The notes under the pieces: model-generated
Database searches by the model: none
The model's input: only the letters and a program-made list of their open reading frames with translations
Told to the model about the DNA's origin: nothing
Translations under genes and position numbers: made by a program
Shown: one piece after another, positions 4,588-9,136 of the stretch
How the letters are laid out: each line of letters starts with the position of its first letter
Numbering within the stretch: position 1 is the stretch's first letter
Source of the DNA: Aestuariibaculum sp.
GTDB lineage: Bacteria > Bacteroidota > Bacteroidia > Flavobacteriales > Flavobacteriaceae
Direction: 5' to 3'
DNA: 14,384 nt
Assembly: GCA_047975295.1 (NCBI GenBank)
Contig: JBKEDH010000167.1
Span: forward strand, 1-14,384

Positions 4588-5598
4588 TCATTCCTGTTTC
4601 CGTTCATAATTCCTAACCGCCAACTTTTGTTTAAACAAAATACGGTTTCGCAATTTTCTGGGCTTTAAAACCTCCAGACTTTCACCAAATCCGAGAATTA
4701 AACGCTCCAATTCGTAATTAATCTGAACAAAAATATTAAAAACAACGCCATCCTCACGGGTTTCTATAATACGCTGCGACCAATGGAAAGGCTTTGTAAT
4801 AATATAAGGTGCATTTTTTTTATTGACCCAAAATTGTATGCATTCGGCTTTGATGTTCGATACGGTTACGCCTACTACATCGCTATAAAAATCGTCGCCG
4901 TTAACGGCCATATCTATATATTTAAGTTTTTTGTTCTGTTTTATACCAATTATCCGGTCTAAAGCAAGTGTTATAAACTTTTCATTTTGGTAGGCCAGTA
5001 AAAACCAACGGTTATTAAACTCTTTTAATAATTGCGGGTGTACTTCTATAATTTTAGGTACTCTTGCCGAAAACGACTGATAATTAACATTAATAACAGT
5101 TTTATCTTGAATGGTTTTATAAATAACATCAATAAAGTTTAGCCCCTTTAATTGTTCGTTCTTATCTAAATGAATAATGGCCCGTTTATTGACCTGAGAT
5201 GCGTAAACCGAATCTTCCAGACGCTGTAAAACACCGTCCATCTCCTTAAAAAGCGAAAAATCCTTAAATTGTTTTAATACTTGGATGGCATTGTTCATTA
5301 TTTCAACGTCTTTATCGGTTACGGGAATGTTTACAATACTGTAATTTTCGTCTTCATATTTATAATACTTCCTATTGTAAACCACAATAGGCGCATTATA
5401 ACCAAGTTTATCACTACGCATTATTTGTATATCCAATTGTACGGTACGCTTGCTAACATTAACATCTTTACCTTCGTATTCGTAAAGAGCGTCCGATACG
5501 GCTTCTATTAAATCGTCTAATGTCCAGCTTCTAAAATGGTTTTGAAGACATTTATCTATGGTTTTATATCTAATAAGAGCGTTTTTATTAACGGCCAT
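4588..5598 (-). CDS. WYL-domain transcriptional regulator (N-terminal wHTH, central WYL, C-terminal WCX-like; BrxR/CapW/PafBC-like architecture)
   Basis: 336 aa. N-terminal HTH-like SKRTVQLDIQIM. Central segment INVNYQSFSARVPKIIEVHPQLLKEFNNRWFLLAYQNEKFITLALDRI matches the WYL domain consensus (Y.S....R.V.P..L......WYL.AY........F.LDRI). The length is typical for this family. The gene is divergent from the ncRNA/SPFH/RtcB cluster. Confidence 0.8.
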   Translation of the reverse strand: MAVNKNALIRYKTIDKCLQNHFRSWTLDDLIEAVSDALYEYEGKDVNVSKRTVQLDIQIMRSDKLGYNAPIVVYNRKYYKYEDENYSIVNIPVTDKDVEIMNNAIQVLKQFKDFSLFKEMDGVLQRLEDSVYASQVNKRAIIHLDKNEQLKGLNFIDVIYKTIQDKTVINVNYQSFSARVPKIIEVHPQLLKEFNNRWFLLAYQNEKFITLALDRIIGIKQNKKLKYIDMAVNGDDFYSDVVGVTVSNIKAECIQFWVNKKNAPYIITKPFHWSQRIIETREDGVVFNIFVQINYELERLILGFGESLEVLKPRKLRNRILFKQKLAVRNYERKQE

Positions 5599-5660
5599 AA
5601 TGTTACTGTTCTAATTCATTTTTACTAAAATATAAGAAATTTTTCAAAAAAAAATTAAAC

Positions 5661-5679
5661 TACGCAAAAACATTGCGTA
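5661..5679. promoter_or_regulatory. Perfect palindrome TACGCAA-N5-TTGCGTA, candidate operator (possibly for the adjacent WYL regulator)
   Basis: 7-bp arms are exact reverse complements with a 5-nt spacer. It lies 63 bp upstream of the WYL gene start codon and overlaps the candidate -33 element of a plus-strand promoter. Confidence 0.4.
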
Positions 5680-5700
5680 ATTACATGAAAATATTTGCAA
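5671..5700 (+). promoter_or_regulatory. Candidate Bacteroidetes-type sigma-A promoter for the plus-strand tRNA-like/Y-RNA-like transcript
   Basis: TTG at 5673-5675 and TATTTG at 5692-5697 approximate TAnnTTTG. The spacing is shorter than the ~19-nt consensus. A transcription start near 5704 is implied. This is a weak motif-only call. Confidence 0.25.
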
Positions 5701-5742
5701 TGTAATAATAAAGAAGTCTTCTTTTTAGACTTTGTAAGTAGT

Positions 5743-5772
5743 GCTCCACCAGACACAGGAAGCTGGTGGAGC
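5743..5772 (+). other. Strong hairpin: 10-bp perfect stem GCTCCACCAG/CTGGTGGAGC with 10-nt loop ACACAGGAAG
   Basis: Direct reverse-complement reading. It sits between the candidate promoter and the first tRNA-like module. It follows a second palindrome, AAAGAAG-T-CTTCTTT, at 5710-5724. Confidence 0.5.
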
Positions 5773-5798
5773 TTAACAAACGCTCTTAAATATATAAT

Positions 5799-5870
5799 CT
5801 GGAAAAATAACAATGGCTGTTTGCTCGCTTTGGAAGCGGGAGGTTGCAGGTTCGAATCCTGCTTTCCAGA
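5799..5870 (+). tRNA. tRNA-like, canonical order, Pro(UGG)-like anticodon loop; atypical D-arm (possible pseudo-tRNA or part of a Y-RNA-like transcript)
   Basis: Cloverleaf reads CTGGAAA/TTTCCAG (perfect 7-bp acceptor, C1-G72 as in bacterial tRNA-Pro), AA, weak D-arm TAAC-AATGGCT-GTTT, G, anticodon stem CTCGC/GCGGG, loop TTTGGAA (U33, anticodon TGG, A37), variable AGGTT, T-arm GCAGG-TTCGAAT-CCTGC, discriminator A. No CCA is encoded. A8 and the 3-bp A/T D-stem are non-canonical. Confidence 0.45.
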
Positions 5871-6017
5871 CAAATGCCTGTAATAAAAAATATCAAGCAA
5901 GTCCTGTTGGGTGTTTCGGTATAGCACTATTGTATAAAACCTTGCCGATGGGTATTAGGTATTTATATGCAACTTGACTTGAAGGTTTCGAATTGTTTAT
6001 CCAAAAAACAATCACCA

Positions 6018-6087
6018 TCTATCTGTCACGGGTTCGAATCCCGTTCCCAACAAAAGTTGGGATAGCTCAGTTTGGTAGAGCAATAGA
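6018..6087 (+). ncRNA. Circularly permuted tRNA-like module (YrlA-type Y RNA-like tRNA mimic)
   Basis: Order is TCTAT (anticodon-stem 3' strand), CTGTC (variable), ACGGG-TTCGAAT-CCCGT (T-arm), TCCCAAC (acceptor 3' strand), AAAA loop, GTTGGGA (acceptor 5' strand), TA, GCTC-AGTTTGGTA-GAGC (D-arm), A, ATAGA (anticodon-stem 5' strand). All helices are perfect Watson-Crick. The element spacings equal those of a real tRNA but the order is permuted and the acceptor stem is loop-closed. Confidence 0.55.
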
Positions 6088-6096
6088 TTATCAATT

Positions 6097-6166
6097 GTAG
6101 GTTCGAATCCTACTCATGCAAAAACGTGATGGCGAAATTGGTAAACGCACTGTAACTGGGTTACAG
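6097..6166 (+). ncRNA. Second tRNA-like module in the same T-arm, stem-loop, D-arm order (degenerate)
   Basis: T-arm GTAGG-TTCGAAT-CCTAC (6097-6113), weak stem-loop region 6114-6131, class-II-like D-arm GCG-AAATTGGTAAA-CGC (6132-6148), A, then hairpin CTGTA(A)-ACTGGGT-TACAG (6150-6166). The acceptor strands do not pair, so this is not a canonical tRNA. Confidence 0.35.
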
Positions 6167-6172
6167 CTTGAA

Positions 6173-6195
6173 ATGGACTCAAAATCCATATTTTT
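6173..6195 (+). terminator. Rho-independent terminator-like hairpin ending the tRNA-like/Y-RNA-like region
   Basis: ATGGA-CTCAAAA-TCCAT stem-loop followed by ATTTTT. A second similar hairpin, ACAGTT-ATATTAA-AACTGT plus TTTTAT, lies at 6286-6310. Confidence 0.4.
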
Positions 6196-6512
6196 AAAAG
6201 AAAACCAACTTTTTAAAATAGGTTACAAAAAAAACAAGGCAAAAGGTTACCGGCCAATAAGGCAATCGGGGTGACACCTTGAAATACAGTTATATTAAAA
6301 CTGTTTTTATAAGTTCTTTAAAGGTCCATACATTGGAAAAATATTGTGATTTTCACGATAAGCAACCAATATATCTGCCTTAAAAACAAGTTATAATACA
6401 CTTTAATCACTTGTATTTCCGTAGTTGGAACGATGGTTCTCTTTTGCTTTGTTTTCAATTAAAAAATAATAACAAATAAAAAATAAAAACCAATAATTAA
6501 ATAACTATAAAA

Positions 6513-7613
6513 ATGAAACGAGTACGTATTAACACAGGAACAGTAGGATTAGTGTTTAAAAACGGTAACTACAAACGTACACTTACCAATGGCACTTATT
6601 GGGTAGGATTTGGCAAACACGTCGAAAAATATGCTTTAAACCACGAATTTTATGCCCCAAAACCATTGGAAATATTAATGGAAGATAGTACACTAACAAA
6701 TATGCTACACGTGGTCGATGTTTTAGATAATGAAATTGTACTAGTTTACGAAAACAATAATTTTAAACGAGTGTTGGGAGCAGGCCGATACACCTTTTGG
6801 AATACCTTAATCGAATATAAATTCGTTACGGTCAATTTAAGTAAAATCGATATTACCGAAAGCATCGATAAAACTGTATTAAGCCATGCCCAGTTATTAC
6901 CTTATGTGCGTGTTTTTGAAATTGCTGCTTACGAAAAAGCCATTTTAATGGTCGATGATACATATATAAAAACATTGAATCACGGTACATACCGGTTTTG
7001 GAAAAACCAGCAAACCATAAAAATAGCAAAAGCCGATTTACGCCAATTACAATTAGAAATAGCAGGGCAAGAGCTACTTACAAAAGACAAAGCAACCATT
7101 CGAATCAATTTTTATGCACAGTATAAAATAACCGATATAGAAACCGCCTTAATGCAAAATAAAGATTACGAAAAACAACTTTATATAACTTTGCAATTGG
7201 CATTAAGGGCCTATGTTGGCACCTATACACTCGATGAGTTGTTAGAACAAAAAGACAACGTAGCAAAAGTCGTTTTGAACAATGTAAAAGCACAAGCCAA
7301 CAAATTAGGCGTTAACGTATTGCACACAGGTATGCGTGACATAATTTTACCGGGCGACATGAAAGATATTATGAATCAAGTACTAATCGCACAGAAAAAA
7401 GCACAGGCCAATGTTATTACAAGGCGCGAAGAAACAGCTTCTACACGAAGTCTGTTAAACACCGCCAAATTAATGGAAGACAACACCATGTTGTTCAAAT
7501 TAAAGGAAATGGAATACGTCGAAAAAATAGCCGATAAAATTGGAAAAATTACAGTGGCTGGAAACGGAAACGTTATTGAGCAATTAAAAGATATTTTTTC
7601 GGTTAACAAATAA
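6513..7613 (+). CDS. SPFH/band-7 (slipin/stomatin-like) domain protein, no predicted TM helix
   Basis: 366 aa. The C-terminal half (QELLTKDKATIRINFYAQYKITDIETAL...GVNVLHTGMRDIILPGDMKDIMNQVLIAQKKAQANVITRREETA) matches the SPFH core and the following coiled coil. The N-terminal half carries three G-x-Y-x-FW repeats ~65 aa apart. There is no N-terminal hydrophobic anchor. Confidence 0.7.
   Translation: MKRVRINTGTVGLVFKNGNYKRTLTNGTYWVGFGKHVEKYALNHEFYAPKPLEILMEDSTLTNMLHVVDVLDNEIVLVYENNNFKRVLGAGRYTFWNTLIEYKFVTVNLSKIDITESIDKTVLSHAQLLPYVRVFEIAAYEKAILMVDDTYIKTLNHGTYRFWKNQQTIKIAKADLRQLQLEIAGQELLTKDKATIRINFYAQYKITDIETALMQNKDYEKQLYITLQLALRAYVGTYTLDELLEQKDNVAKVVLNNVKAQANKLGVNVLHTGMRDIILPGDMKDIMNQVLIAQKKAQANVITRREETASTRSLLNTAKLMEDNTMLFKLKEMEYVEKIADKIGKITVAGNGNVIEQLKDIFSVNK

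Positions 7614-7744: not shown

Positions 7745-9136
<1,392 letters not shown>

Follow-up and report, generated by a model that had tools for sequence, protein, structure and literature searches.

The window, meaning the whole stretch of DNA that was analysed (14,384 nt), holds a conserved structured RNA between a WYL regulator gene and a slipin-RtcB gene pair, and this RNA lies on the slipin-RtcB strand. The features of the locus are:

4588-5598, minus strand: divergent gene for a transcription regulator with WYL and WCX domains (Pfam PF13280, PF25583)
5799-5870, plus strand: tRNA-Pro(UGG)-like gene in canonical order (Rfam tRNA, 51.9 bits; missed by ARAGORN)
5892-5982, plus strand: upstream structured domain, with outer helix TCAAGCAAGT + ACTTGACTTGA and two inner hairpins
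5990-6013, plus strand: 5' hairpin, stem approximately ATTGTT/AACAAT, loop with CCAAAA
6017-6088, plus strand: module 1, a YrlA-like permuted tRNA-like domain (Rfam YrlA RF02553, 47.1 bits), made up of closing stem ATCTAT/ATAGAT, variable loop CTGTC, T arm (6028-6044), 7-bp acceptor hairpin TCCCAAC-AAAA-GTTGGGA and D arm (6065-6081), and without an anticodon loop
6091-6171, plus strand: module 2 (parts listed below)
6173-6189, plus strand: hairpin 3, ATGGA-CTCAAAA-TCCAT, with a 7-nt loop like the anticodon loop of tRNA-Leu(CAA)
6203-6224, plus strand: hairpin 4, AACCA...T(A)GGTT, loop CUUUUUAAAA, identified by eye
6513-7613, plus strand: slipin (SPFH/Band-7) gene (Pfam PF01145), named 'slipin family protein' in the sources
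7763-9136, plus strand: gene for an RtcB-family RNA ligase (Pfam PF01139, 131.5 bits)

NCBIfam RtcB models also match the product of 7763-9136, all of them under their cut-off. A hydrophobic segment is not evident by eye at the N-terminus of the translated slipin. At least 528 relatives were confirmed in a slipin-gene scan of GTDB species representatives; the best 80 of these, nearly all from Flavobacteriaceae, were examined. Only about 15 of these 80 loci have RtcB directly 3' of slipin (within a 3-kb flank), and thus slipin, rather than RtcB, is the tight partner. No slipin homologues were found in phages.

The tRNA-Pro-like gene lies about 20 nt 5' of the start of the conserved RNA block (at about 5890). 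It is conserved, with a covarying acceptor stem, and in relatives it sits within, or gives way to, a large tRNA array. These arrays, just upstream of the RNA, carry up to 16 genes (12 loci listed).

A longer structured RNA

From about position 5890 onwards 78 of the 80 loci align, and the block 5890-6140 is shared by these 78. An RNAalifold consensus was obtained for the upstream domain (5892-5982), with some compensatory pairs. The 5' hairpin shows changes on both sides in five of its seven pairs, with 94.7% of cells paired. For module 1, a MAFFT alignment of 44 loci has 96.6% of cells paired, compared with 38-52% when the strands are slid.

Downstream of module 2, the sequence-only reading had placed a terminator at 6173-6195. 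However, this is a recurring hairpin rather than a conserved terminator: the T-run that follows hairpin 3 is not conserved, and conserved structure continues downstream. The hairpin 3 stem has two G-C pairs, and the consensus scan reported no terminator at 6173-6195. By a strict pattern (loop CUNAAAA), hairpin 3 is found in 29 of 78 loci, with alternative stems that include AGACA/TGTCT, ATAGA/TCTAT and ATGAA/TTCAT. At loci L009 and L012, and by eye at L006, it lies directly 3' of the D arm and is itself the anticodon arm. Hairpin 4 is seen by eye in most downstream sequences, with stems such as GATCA/TGATC, TTATCA/TGATAG, GGTCA/CGACC and GACCA/TGGTC.

As judged from sequence conservation, modules 1 and 2 are parts of one predicted structured RNA of at least 330 nt (about 5890-6225), which possibly extends as far as the slipin start codon. 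An earlier proposal of one RNA with two tRNA-like domains is compatible with this, since both modules are in one conserved block. Promoter and terminator consensus scans around the block gave nothing usable, and no Bacteroidetes-type TAnnTTTG box was found at a fixed place upstream.

Module 2 as a circularly permuted tRNA mimic

In the window, the parts of module 2 are:

6091-6094, plus strand: 5' strand of the closing stem, TCAA, pairing with 6168-6171 in the fold of 6090-6205
6095-6096, plus strand: TT ahead of the T stem; T6096 corresponds to tRNA position 48 and is the Levitt partner of A6136 (position 15)
6097-6113, plus strand: T arm, GTAGG-TTCGAAT-CCTAC, read directly from the sequence
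6114-6129, plus strand: closed acceptor-like hairpin, TCATG/CGTGA with loop CAAAAA, from minimum-free-energy folds
6130-6131, plus strand: equivalents of U8 and G9
6132-6148, plus strand: D arm of class II (tRNA-Leu-like), GCG-AAATTGGTAAA-CGC, with A14, A15, G18 G19 and A21 present
6149-6166, plus strand: equivalent of N26, followed by the anticodon-like arm CTGTA-ACTGGGT-TACAG (hairpin 6150-6166)
6168-6171, plus strand: 3' strand of the closing stem, TTGA, pairing with 6091-6094 in the same fold

On the plus strand, 6097-6166 reads in the order T arm, acceptor-like hairpin, Leu-type D arm and anticodon-like hairpin, and the closing stem occupies the position of the class-II variable arm. The T arm, the D arm and the hairpin 6150-6166 were all found where the sequence-only reading had located them. 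It had also held that TCATGCA has no partner, with only a 3-bp TCA/TGA pairing available, but in the folds TCATG (6114-6118) pairs with CGTGA (6125-6129) to give 5 bp, including the G-U pair T6117-G6126, around a 6-nt loop, and in relatives the stem is mostly of 6-7 bp. Single-sequence folding z-scores (-2.05 and -1.32) are not decisive. As single-sequence thermodynamics does not show the arrangement, the evidence that it is beyond chance is comparative.

An orthologous module is present 5' of slipin, at a fixed position, in all 78 fetched Flavobacteriaceae loci with enough upstream sequence, and its helices covary. A covariance model (R1) was built from 22 seed sequences, and it scores the window module, itself a seed member, at 65.8 bits. 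In 67 of 81 sources R1 finds modules no more than 900 nt 5' of slipin with E ≤ 2e-12, and the remaining 12 sources with enough upstream sequence have weaker matches in the same place. In the covariance-model alignment of 84 modules, the four helices have 96.1% of cells paired, compared with 31-44% with slid partners, the covariation score is 0.725 (0.07-0.15 slid), the observed values are reached in none of 500 shuffles, and 19 of 21 pairs change on both sides; this alignment is fitted to structure, and related sequences inflate the shuffle statistics, both of which biases are mitigated, not removed, by counts made at fixed positions and on MAFFT alignments. RNAalifold on the MAFFT alignment gives the same four helices. 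Three pairs of the T stem, the D-stem pairs and all five pairs of the anticodon-like stem covary across the 84 modules.

The acceptor stem takes about 40 different sequences among relatives; all seven positions change on both sides, with 4-6 pair types each, and the hairpin loops are mostly of 2-5 nt, with some of up to 23 nt. In 62 of 63 synteny-defined loci the acceptor pairing, read at fixed positions extracted from covariance-model coordinates, is at least 5/7, and in the remaining one it is 4/7. For the canonical order, in which module 1 would supply the 5' strand and module 2 the 3' strand, pairing is no better than chance (mode 3/7). The closing stem has at least four contiguous pairs in 27 of the 32 class-II-like modules of relatives (37% in a swapped control), with sequences such as TTGTTTC/GAAACAG, ATTCG/CGAAT, TGTTTA/TAAACA and ATCGTT/AACGAT, and is absent from class-I-like modules. 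There is moderate confidence that this predicted stem is real.

The nucleotides that shape tRNA are also retained. Position 8 is T and position 14 is A in 84/84 modules, and the T-loop UUC, A58 and the G53-C61 pair are likewise invariant. The anticodon-like loop has 7 nt, with U33 and R37 in 82/84. At the Levitt pair 15:48 (R15 and the base 5' of the T stem), G:C is found in 43 modules, A:U in 37, A:C in three and A:A in one, and the two positions covary (Fisher p = 2e-20). ARAGORN recognises a tRNA in 83/84 modules after computational de-permutation and in 0/84 in native order; the de-permuted window module is called tRNA-Pro(tgg), and none of 2000 shuffles is called a tRNA. No canonical native-order tRNA is found at the module by ARAGORN (0 genes) or Rfam. 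The Rfam tRNA match at 6061-6115 (33.9 bits) is a chimera of the module 1 D arm and the module 2 T arm.

All the elements of a class-II tRNA cloverleaf are present in module 2, including an acceptor stem of seven positions with a short closing loop. Module 2 also retains the nucleotides of the L-shape (G18 G19, U54 U55 C56, A58, G53-C61 and the 15:48 Levitt pair), and its chain runs in and out through the variable-arm position instead of the acceptor end. Thus, from the covarying helices, the universal nucleotides, the Levitt switch and the de-permutation result together, module 2 is a complete circularly permuted tRNA mimic. The earlier suggestion of a second tRNA-like module with its T arm before its D arm, directly after the first, is borne out by alignment, covariation and de-permutation. 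Its description as a more degenerate copy of module 1 is not; module 2 is of a different and more complete type, with the class-II D arm and full anticodon-like arm that module 1 lacks, and it is attached via a variable-arm-like stem rather than the anticodon stem. The window copy is mildly degenerate relative to its orthologues, as its acceptor stem has only 5 bp and two mismatches, and its loop ACUGGGU is the sole anticodon-like loop of the 84 aligned modules with A32/C33 instead of Y32/U33. In this copy, with its weakened acceptor stem and no U33, the loop may be under relaxed constraint. The anticodon arms of the modules do not match those of same-anticodon tRNAs in the adjacent arrays, so specific mimicry of array tRNAs could not be shown.

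Function and alternative explanations

The stretch 6091-6171 is probably the second of two tandem permuted mimics in a conserved RNA, working as a tRNA-shaped protein-binding domain. From context and analogy we infer that the mimics would serve the SPFH-RtcB repair system as a handle, decoy or sensor. Module 2 could offer both a tRNA body and an anticodon-type loop to partners that recognise tRNA, of which RtcB, the slipin scaffold, the WYL regulator, modification enzymes and RNase P are candidates; tRNA-cleaving toxins are further candidates, in which case module 2 would act as a decoy. As it lacks a free CCA end, module 2 is not chargeable as transcribed. Cleavage by RNase P is plausible because relatives have 7-bp acceptor hairpins, as does the M. 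smegmatis YrlA that this enzyme cleaves.

A possible refinement, which does not exclude the protein-binding explanation, is that module 2 and hairpins 3 and 4 offer their anticodon-type loops to anticodon nucleases as decoys. Cleavage in the operon leader would titrate the toxin, and RtcB would reseal the RNA. The anticodon-loop rules noted above are consistent with this, as is the retention of specific loops within clades while their stems covary (CUUUUAA 23 times, CUCAUAA 12 times, CUGUUAA eight times). De-permuted modules are given Lys, Met, Asn, Leu, Arg and Gln identities by ARAGORN, and tRNAs of these classes are attacked by known anticodon nucleases. Large accessory tRNA arrays lie just upstream in relatives, enterobacterial homologues carry the element in a transcript from an RtcR/sigma-54-type promoter, and the RtcR ligand is a nicked or permuted tRNA (PMC10159003). 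However, no nuclease, cleavage product or regulator-RNA contact is known, the Salmonella YrlA is uncut by a DNA-damage-induced anticodon nuclease (PMC7790460), and the drift of the middle anticodon base among close relatives (UAG, UUG, UCG), like the loss of U33 in the window, also fits weak constraint. On balance the decoy reading is unlikely. Somewhat less likely again is a damage sensor or bait in which the nuclease-cut loop would induce expression via the WYL regulator (compare RtcR) and resealing by RtcB would reset the switch. If this were true, the cut mimic would be a natural 'nicked tRNA' with a closed acceptor end, and the anticodon changes from species to species would record an arms race with tRNA-targeting toxins.

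The complete-tRNA look of the de-permuted modules also raises the question of whether this is a permuted tRNA gene proper, with a transcript that would be cut at the variable-arm stem, circularised by RtcB and converted by RNase P, 3' processing and CCA addition into a decoding tRNA, as in Cyanidioschyzon merolae. The RtcB gene is adjacent, joining the ends across the closing stem would restore a variable arm of class II, and the 7-bp acceptor hairpins of relatives have loops of 4-5 nt, inside the span of 1-74 nt for the intervening sequences of permuted genes (PMC3978253). Such genes are, however, known only from algae and archaea (PMC3978253), the splicing endonuclease is absent from bacteria, and on inspection no bulge-helix-bulge is seen at the junction. 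Moreover, class-I-like modules are without a closing stem, module 1 is without an anticodon loop, a larger conserved RNA surrounds the modules, and the window copy has been kept despite its 5-bp acceptor stem, two mismatches and C33. This origin is highly improbable. Equally hard to credit are decayed remains of tandem canonical tRNA genes or their junctions, where a T arm and 3' acceptor strand would be followed by the 5' strand and D arm of the next tRNA. The upstream arrays and a plausible origin of the module by tandem tRNA duplication speak for this, and R1 also matches real tRNA-tRNA junctions at 35-60 bits, some of which show 7/7 'acceptor' pairs because array tRNAs share acceptor sequences. 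Against it, the module has a fixed position in the 78 loci with upstream sequence, the flanks yield no complete tRNA, and the match at 6061-6115 is without an anticodon arm. The syntenic module as a tandem-tRNA artefact was rejected on the covariation of the hairpin pairing, the chance level of cross pairing and the covarying Levitt pair. Tandem tRNA junctions are a known source of false YrlA-like matches.

The last alternative is a canonical Y RNA (YrlA) that binds the Ro60/Rsr protein. The Rfam YrlA match at 6005-6107 (47.1 bits, E 4e-9), the same arm order and the same tertiary nucleotides favour it, but the score is below the gathering score of 69, which is reached neither in the window nor in 20 related loci. 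The 7-bp helix of the Ro60 site is deleted in the Rfam YrlA alignment, the GNCGAAN0-1G motif is absent from 5599-6512, and there is no TROVE (Ro60/Rsr) gene among the nine large ORFs of the 14.4-kb window. YrlA membership was rejected on the score, the missing Ro60 helix and motif, and the lack of a TROVE gene in the window; a canonical YrlA is very improbable here.

Comparison with known systems

The locus bears on the role of the tRNA-like domain in bacterial Y-like RNAs and on how RtcB repair operons recognise damaged tRNA, and it makes testable the question of tRNA mimics as cofactors, decoys or sensors in RNA repair. Module 2 is a variant of the YrlA and Band-7-associated tRNA-like RNAs. 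The variant is natural and widespread, with at least 528 slipin-locus relatives among GTDB species representatives, and the class of permuted mimics is missed entirely by gene finders and Rfam thresholds. It is distinctive as a complete tRNA mimic, anticodon arm included, rotated so that the acceptor end is closed and arranged in tandem, and coupled not to Ro60 and RtcR but to an SPFH scaffold protein and a WYL regulator.

YrlA (RF02553; Chen et al. 2014, PMC4201824; structure in Wang et al. 2018, 10.1101/312249) has the same order of T arm, closed acceptor-like stem-loop and D arm as this locus. It shares with the modules the tRNA tertiary nucleotides and the compensatory G15:C48 / A15:U48 Levitt pair, and with the locus a linkage to RtcB RNA-repair genes. 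Levitt covariation and cleavage of the 7-bp form by RNase P are described for the YrlA tRNA-like domain (PMC4201824), and 7-bp acceptor versions occur in both YrlA and the modules, that of M. smegmatis YrlA being the RNase P substrate. YrlA, however, has no anticodon-like arm and is attached by the anticodon stem, whereas module 2 has the full arm and is attached at the variable-arm position. Unlike YrlA, this RNA is much longer and has tandem modules (two; up to three or four in relatives).

According to the summary in 10.1101/312249, the b7a-tRNA of Burroughs & Aravind 2016 (NAR 44:8525) is a tRNA-like RNA beside a Band-7 protein and RtcB, and it strongly resembles authentic tRNA; as far as this summary goes, it is like the present locus in having a tRNA-like RNA next to Band-7/SPFH and RtcB genes. 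In that source YrlA, too, occasionally adjoins a Band-7 protein gene. The tRNA-Pro-like gene 5799-5870 may be the b7a-tRNA proper. A T arm with a 6-7 bp hairpin is also found 5' of slipin in distant loci, in Citrobacter, E. coli and Subdoligranulum, and the Citrobacter locus also has rtcR and a sigma-54-like promoter.

Algae and archaea are the only known sources of permuted tRNA genes, among which class-II tRNAs are over-represented (reviewed in PMC3978253). Those of Cyanidioschyzon merolae, green algae and Thermofilum pendens are like module 2 in placing the 3' part (T arm, 3' acceptor strand) first, and in C. merolae-type genes, as in module 2, a short intervening sequence links the two acceptor strands. 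Their junctions, however, are at 20/21, 37/38, 50/51 or 59/60 with a bulge-helix-bulge (PMC3978253), whereas the module 2 junction is in the variable region; by inspection, 6083-6096 and 6167-6178 have no bulge-helix-bulge motif, only the 4-bp stem TCAA/TTGA. C. merolae-type genes are eukaryotic or archaeal and mature via a circular intermediate to decoding tRNAs, whereas module 2 is bacterial, and its window copy is not decoding-competent and is embedded in a larger RNA. tmRNA is like module 2 a bacterial tRNA mimic, permuted (two-piece) in some lineages, but in module 2 no tag reading frame is seen and there is no free CCA acceptor end as transcribed. No tmRNA is found in the window by ARAGORN, and the only Rfam tmRNA match is a 9.4-bit fragment.

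RtcR binds nicked or permuted tRNA (PMC10159003), and its best ligand is a synthetic permuted tRNA-Leu(UAG), which is also an RtcB substrate and is circularised by RtcB. The likeness to this molecule is a further distinctive feature of the locus. Its ACCA end is replaced by a tetraloop, and close relatives have a Leu(UAG)-like module with a 7-bp acceptor stem and a tetraloop. The engineered tRNA-Leu opens in the anticodon loop, with 5'-OH and 2',3'-cyclic-phosphate ends, whereas in the natural module the opening is at the variable arm, from which the chain runs on into the flanking RNA.

The second module and its gene neighbourhood

The window is an entire contig from a metagenome-assembled Flavobacteriaceae genome (source name Aestuariibaculum sp.), and its RNA region sits in a 914-nt gap where the sole sizeable ORFs are two overlapping the tRNA-like gene. 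Module 2, a tRNA-like element with the T arm before the D arm, is a tRNA body in circularly permuted order, conserved and correctly folded, with no free acceptor end. The T arm, D arm and CTGTA/TACAG hairpin described in the sequence-only reading are all present. The acceptor-like strand, which that reading left without a partner, in fact forms five pairs (one of them G-U) over a 6-nt loop in energy-minimised folds.

Module 2 and the flanking genes. Genes are from domain matches; other features were read from the sequence, the acceptor-like hairpin also from energy-minimised folds.
4588-5598 (-): WYL+WCX regulator gene, divergent
6091-6094 (+): 5' strand of the putative closing stem, TCAA
6095-6096 (+): TT before the T arm
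6097-6113 (+): T arm, GTAGG-TTCGAAT-CCTAC
6114-6129 (+): acceptor-like hairpin, TCATG-CAAAAA-CGTGA
6130-6131 (+): TG between acceptor-like hairpin and D arm
6132-6148 (+): D arm, GCG-AAATTGGTAAA-CGC
6149 (+): A after the D arm
6150-6166 (+): anticodon-like hairpin, CTGTA-ACTGGGT-TACAG
6167 (+): C
6168-6171 (+): 3' strand of the putative closing stem, TTGA
6173-6189 (+): hairpin 3, ATGGA-CTCAAAA-TCCAT
6513-7613 (+): slipin (SPFH/Band-7) gene, same strand as the RNA
7763-9136 (+): RtcB-family RNA ligase gene

The gene order agrees with an association that Wang et al. (10.1101/312249) relay, citing Burroughs & Aravind 2016: some bacteria encode RtcB beside a predicted tRNA-like RNA and a Band-7 protein, and YrlA lies occasionally beside the Band-7 protein. 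RtcB is found 3' of slipin in only about 15 of the closest loci (3-kb flank; the observation concerns L014-L080, L numbers denoting the related slipin loci), and the tRNA-like RNA and slipin are kept together in all loci; the conserved pair is RNA and slipin, not RNA and RtcB. The permuted tRNA body has a physical and evolutionary tie to slipin, to which RtcB and the WYL regulator are added in this clade.

The slipin protein carries about 130 residues before its Band-7 domain, in which three similar short segments can be seen by eye (e.g. GTVGLVFKNGNYKRTLTNGTYWV, EIVLVYENNNFKRVLGAGRYTFWN); no hydrophobic N-terminal anchor was seen by eye. These features point to a soluble SPFH protein whose additional N-terminal domain might bind the RNA. 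On the strand opposite to slipin, directly past its stop codon, several relatives have a Flavo-1 RNA (RF01705) match above the gathering score (L001 4130-4201 (-), L005 4137-4208 (-), L020 4131-4214 (-), L043 4132-4204 (-), L034 2780-2882 (+)). No such match was found in the slipin-RtcB spacer of the window.

Covariation and alternative origins

A slipin-protein scan of GTDB species representatives confirmed at least 528 relatives, of which the best 80 loci, nearly all Flavobacteriaceae by name, were kept. Searching with 5990-6205 gave matches immediately 5' of slipin in 68 loci, most of them across both modules, and a whole-intergenic search aligned 5890-6140 in 78/80, the remaining two being truncated upstream. 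A covariance model of module 2 (R1; 73 positions, 21 pairs) was built from a MAFFT alignment of 22 orthologues. Among its 84 best matches, 96.1% of cells are paired (31-44% with partners slid by 1-3 columns) and the covariation score is 0.725 (0.07-0.15 when slid), values reached by 0/500 shuffles. Both sides change at 19 of the 21 pairs, including all seven acceptor positions, with 4-6 pair types each, and the same four helices were predicted independently by RNAalifold. The structure is conserved in orthologues, with four helices covarying across 84 modules in the covariance-model alignment.

Two flavours of module 2 are seen, one with a 3-bp Leu-type D stem and 11-nt loop, as in the window, and one with a class-I D arm, GCTC-AGTTGGTA-GAGC. 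Class-II-like modules have a predicted short closing stem, with moderate support, between the sequence preceding the T arm and that following the anticodon-like arm, exactly in the position of a class-II variable arm; at least four contiguous pairs, of varied sequence, form in 27/32 (swapped control 37%). Class-I-like modules have no closing stem. Anticodon-like loops differ by clade (CUUUUAA 23, CUCAUAA 12, CUGUUAA 8, UUUCGGU 7, UUUAGGU 5), the loop being constant inside a clade while the stem covaries; the closest relatives vary at the middle anticodon base only (UAG, UUG, UCG). L009 and L012, and by eye L006, lack the CTGTA hairpin and have hairpin 3 directly after the D arm as anticodon arm. 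Some loci carry a third or fourth module, and in L031 and L061 the first module too scores as complete, with an anticodon arm.

The modules could instead be decayed tRNA junctions. The Rfam tRNA model matches 6061-6115 (33.9 bits) by fusing the D arm of module 1, the YrlA-like permuted domain just upstream, to the T arm of module 2, with almost no anticodon arm, and R1 also matches real tRNA-tRNA junctions in upstream arrays, although with lower scores and a median and mode of 4/7 acceptor pairs, except where tRNAs have the common acceptor sequence TGAGGTA/TATCTCA. As an alignment fitted to R1 leans toward the R1 structure, and tandem tRNAs can imitate YrlA (a warning of Chen et al., PMC4201824), acceptor pairing was re-counted at fixed positions (the 7 nt that follow the T stem versus the 7 nt preceding U8). 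Of 63 loci with module 2 defined by synteny only, all but one (4/7) form at least 5/7 pairs, from about 40 different acceptor-stem sequences. In the canonical reading, module 1 would supply the 5' acceptor strand and module 2 the 3' strand; this pairing is at chance (mode 3/7). U8, A14, T-loop UUC, A58 and G53-C61 are present in 84/84 modules, and U33 with a purine at position 37 in 82/84. Position 48, the base that directly precedes the T stem, covaries with position 15 in the D loop (G:C 43, A:U 37, other 4); 15:48 is the Levitt pair, as used for YrlA by Chen et al. (PMC4201824). The covariation, the cross-pairing counts and the Levitt pair all speak against decayed junctions.

ARAGORN found 0 genes in the window in native order. 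With the arms rearranged into canonical order (the 5' acceptor strand first, followed by the D arm, the anticodon-like arm, the 5 nt preceding the T stem, the T arm and lastly the 3' acceptor strand), it called a tRNA in 83/84 modules, versus 0/84 in native order and 0/2000 shuffles. The window module 2 became tRNA-Pro(tgg); the one failure was the window module 1, which has no anticodon arm. A true permuted tRNA gene is nevertheless unlikely: no bulge-helix-bulge motif was seen by eye, module 1 is without an anticodon loop, and erosion has affected the window copy. To our knowledge, the splicing endonuclease is absent from bacteria, which also counts against such a gene. With A32/C33 and a shortened acceptor stem, the window module 2 is an outlier among the modules; it is a slightly eroded orthologue of the permuted tRNA body.

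The surrounding RNA and neighbouring tRNAs

Module 1 (6017-6088) and its 5' hairpin (5990-6013) also covary (96.6% of cells paired versus 38-52% slid; MAFFT, 44 loci). Rfam YrlA (Y RNA-like) matches at 6005-6107 with 47.1 bits (E 4e-9) under permissive thresholds, the gathering score being 69. Upstream of both modules, 5892-5982 (+) is a conserved branched RNA domain, alignable in 78/80 loci, with an outer helix (TCAAGCAAGT with ACTTGACTTGA), two inner hairpins and some compensatory changes; it matched no Rfam family. Downstream, hairpin 3 is found in 29/78 loci (strict pattern), and hairpin 4 (6203-6224), whose stems vary, in most of the downstream sequences inspected by eye. Hairpin 3 is followed by a T-run that lacks conservation, and about 40 loci are alignable out to ~6450; thus 6173-6195, taken in the sequence-only reading as the transcript-ending terminator, is not the 3' end that relatives conserve. 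Promoter scans gave no placement for the RNA block.

Two more blocks of the slipin leader, 6274-6287 and 6413-6438 (+; ACACCTTGAAATAC, GTATTTCCGTAGTTGGAACGATGGTT), are conserved even in distant loci, and may act as RNA structure, as an operator or as part of a promoter. In 12 loci a second, different conserved RNA of ~260 nt lies 650-1300 nt upstream of the main RNA (L009 1641-1900, L045 1674-1935, L008 1588-1849, L030 1675-1921 and 8 more), embedding its own permuted tRNA-like module with a Leu-type D arm and CTGTA/TACAG arm. The window does not have this second RNA; there, module 2 is the only match to the module part.

A canonical-order tRNA-Pro(UGG)-like gene lies at 5799-5870 (+; Rfam 51.9 bits, missed by ARAGORN), whose D stem (AAC/GTT) is unusual in having 3 bp and whose C1-G72 acceptor stem shows covariation among relatives. 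The 'Band-7-associated tRNA' described in the literature may be this gene. Between it and the WYL gene is a perfect 10-bp hairpin at 5743-5772 (+; GCTCCACCAG-(10 nt)-CTGGTGGAGC), a stretch that aligns in about 21 close relatives. Most relatives have ~3 kb without an ORF upstream of slipin, holding a same-strand canonical tRNA array (L045 36-1296, L052 507-1552, L077 258-1671, L037 701-1949, and others), and in many the conserved RNA block directly follows the last tRNA. ARAGORN counts up to 16 tRNAs in the listed loci and up to 18 in one locus when all 80 are scanned. Many are atypical: a U1-A72 acceptor stem (TGAGGTA...TACCTCA) is common to Lys, Val, Ile and Met, and tRNA-Leu(UAG) is only 74-75 nt, without a long variable arm. 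Such arrays may represent accessory or back-up tRNAs that go with the repair locus.

More distant slipin homologues (32-41% identity) have a T arm and a 6-7 bp hairpin ~160-300 nt upstream of the slipin start codon. Citrobacter freundii (L081 4680-4845; rtcR divergent, nucleotidyltransferase gene downstream) and E. coli STEC639 (L082 4690-4860) have slipin-nucleotidyltransferase operons. In both, a sigma-54-type promoter precedes both the T arm (GGGTTCGATTCCC) and an acceptor-like hairpin of 6-7 bp, which places the element in the operon leader; no clear D arm was seen in these leaders. The leader is present in 1628/5426 complete E. coli genomes, with no non-coding RNA annotation there. In the Subdoligranulum element (R1 30.4 bits), a D-arm-like part and one more hairpin are present in addition.

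Proposed role and known systems

We infer that module 2 would be a tRNA-shaped interaction domain of an RNA partner of the SPFH-RtcB system. This role is guided by three observations: the YrlA domain is a true tRNA mimic, RNase P cutting the form with a 7-bp stem (PMC4201824); the inducing ligand of RtcR is nicked tRNA (PMC10159003); and competitive inhibition of anticodon nucleases was proposed by the YrlA authors (PMC7790460). The mimic may be a scaffold, a decoy or a sensor. A canonical Ro60-binding YrlA was rejected, four of its five defining features being absent.

In the literature covered, which took in Burroughs & Aravind 2016 through the summary of Wang et al., no earlier description was found of a permuted mimic of a whole tRNA that keeps its anticodon arm and is joined at the variable arm, of its tandem placement next to a YrlA-like module in a structured RNA at least 330 nt long, of its changing anticodon identities, or of its pairing with a WYL regulator. 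The kind is already known, since RtcB repair loci include Y-like RNAs that mimic tRNA as well as tRNA-like RNAs associated with Band-7 proteins. YrlA with Ro60 is the analogue of the proposed mimic with the SPFH-RtcB system, and the engineered permuted tRNA-Leu(UAG) of the RtcR literature, its acceptor end closed by a tetraloop and shown there to be both the best ligand of RtcR and an RtcB substrate, has a natural Leu(UAG)-like version in close relatives of the window.
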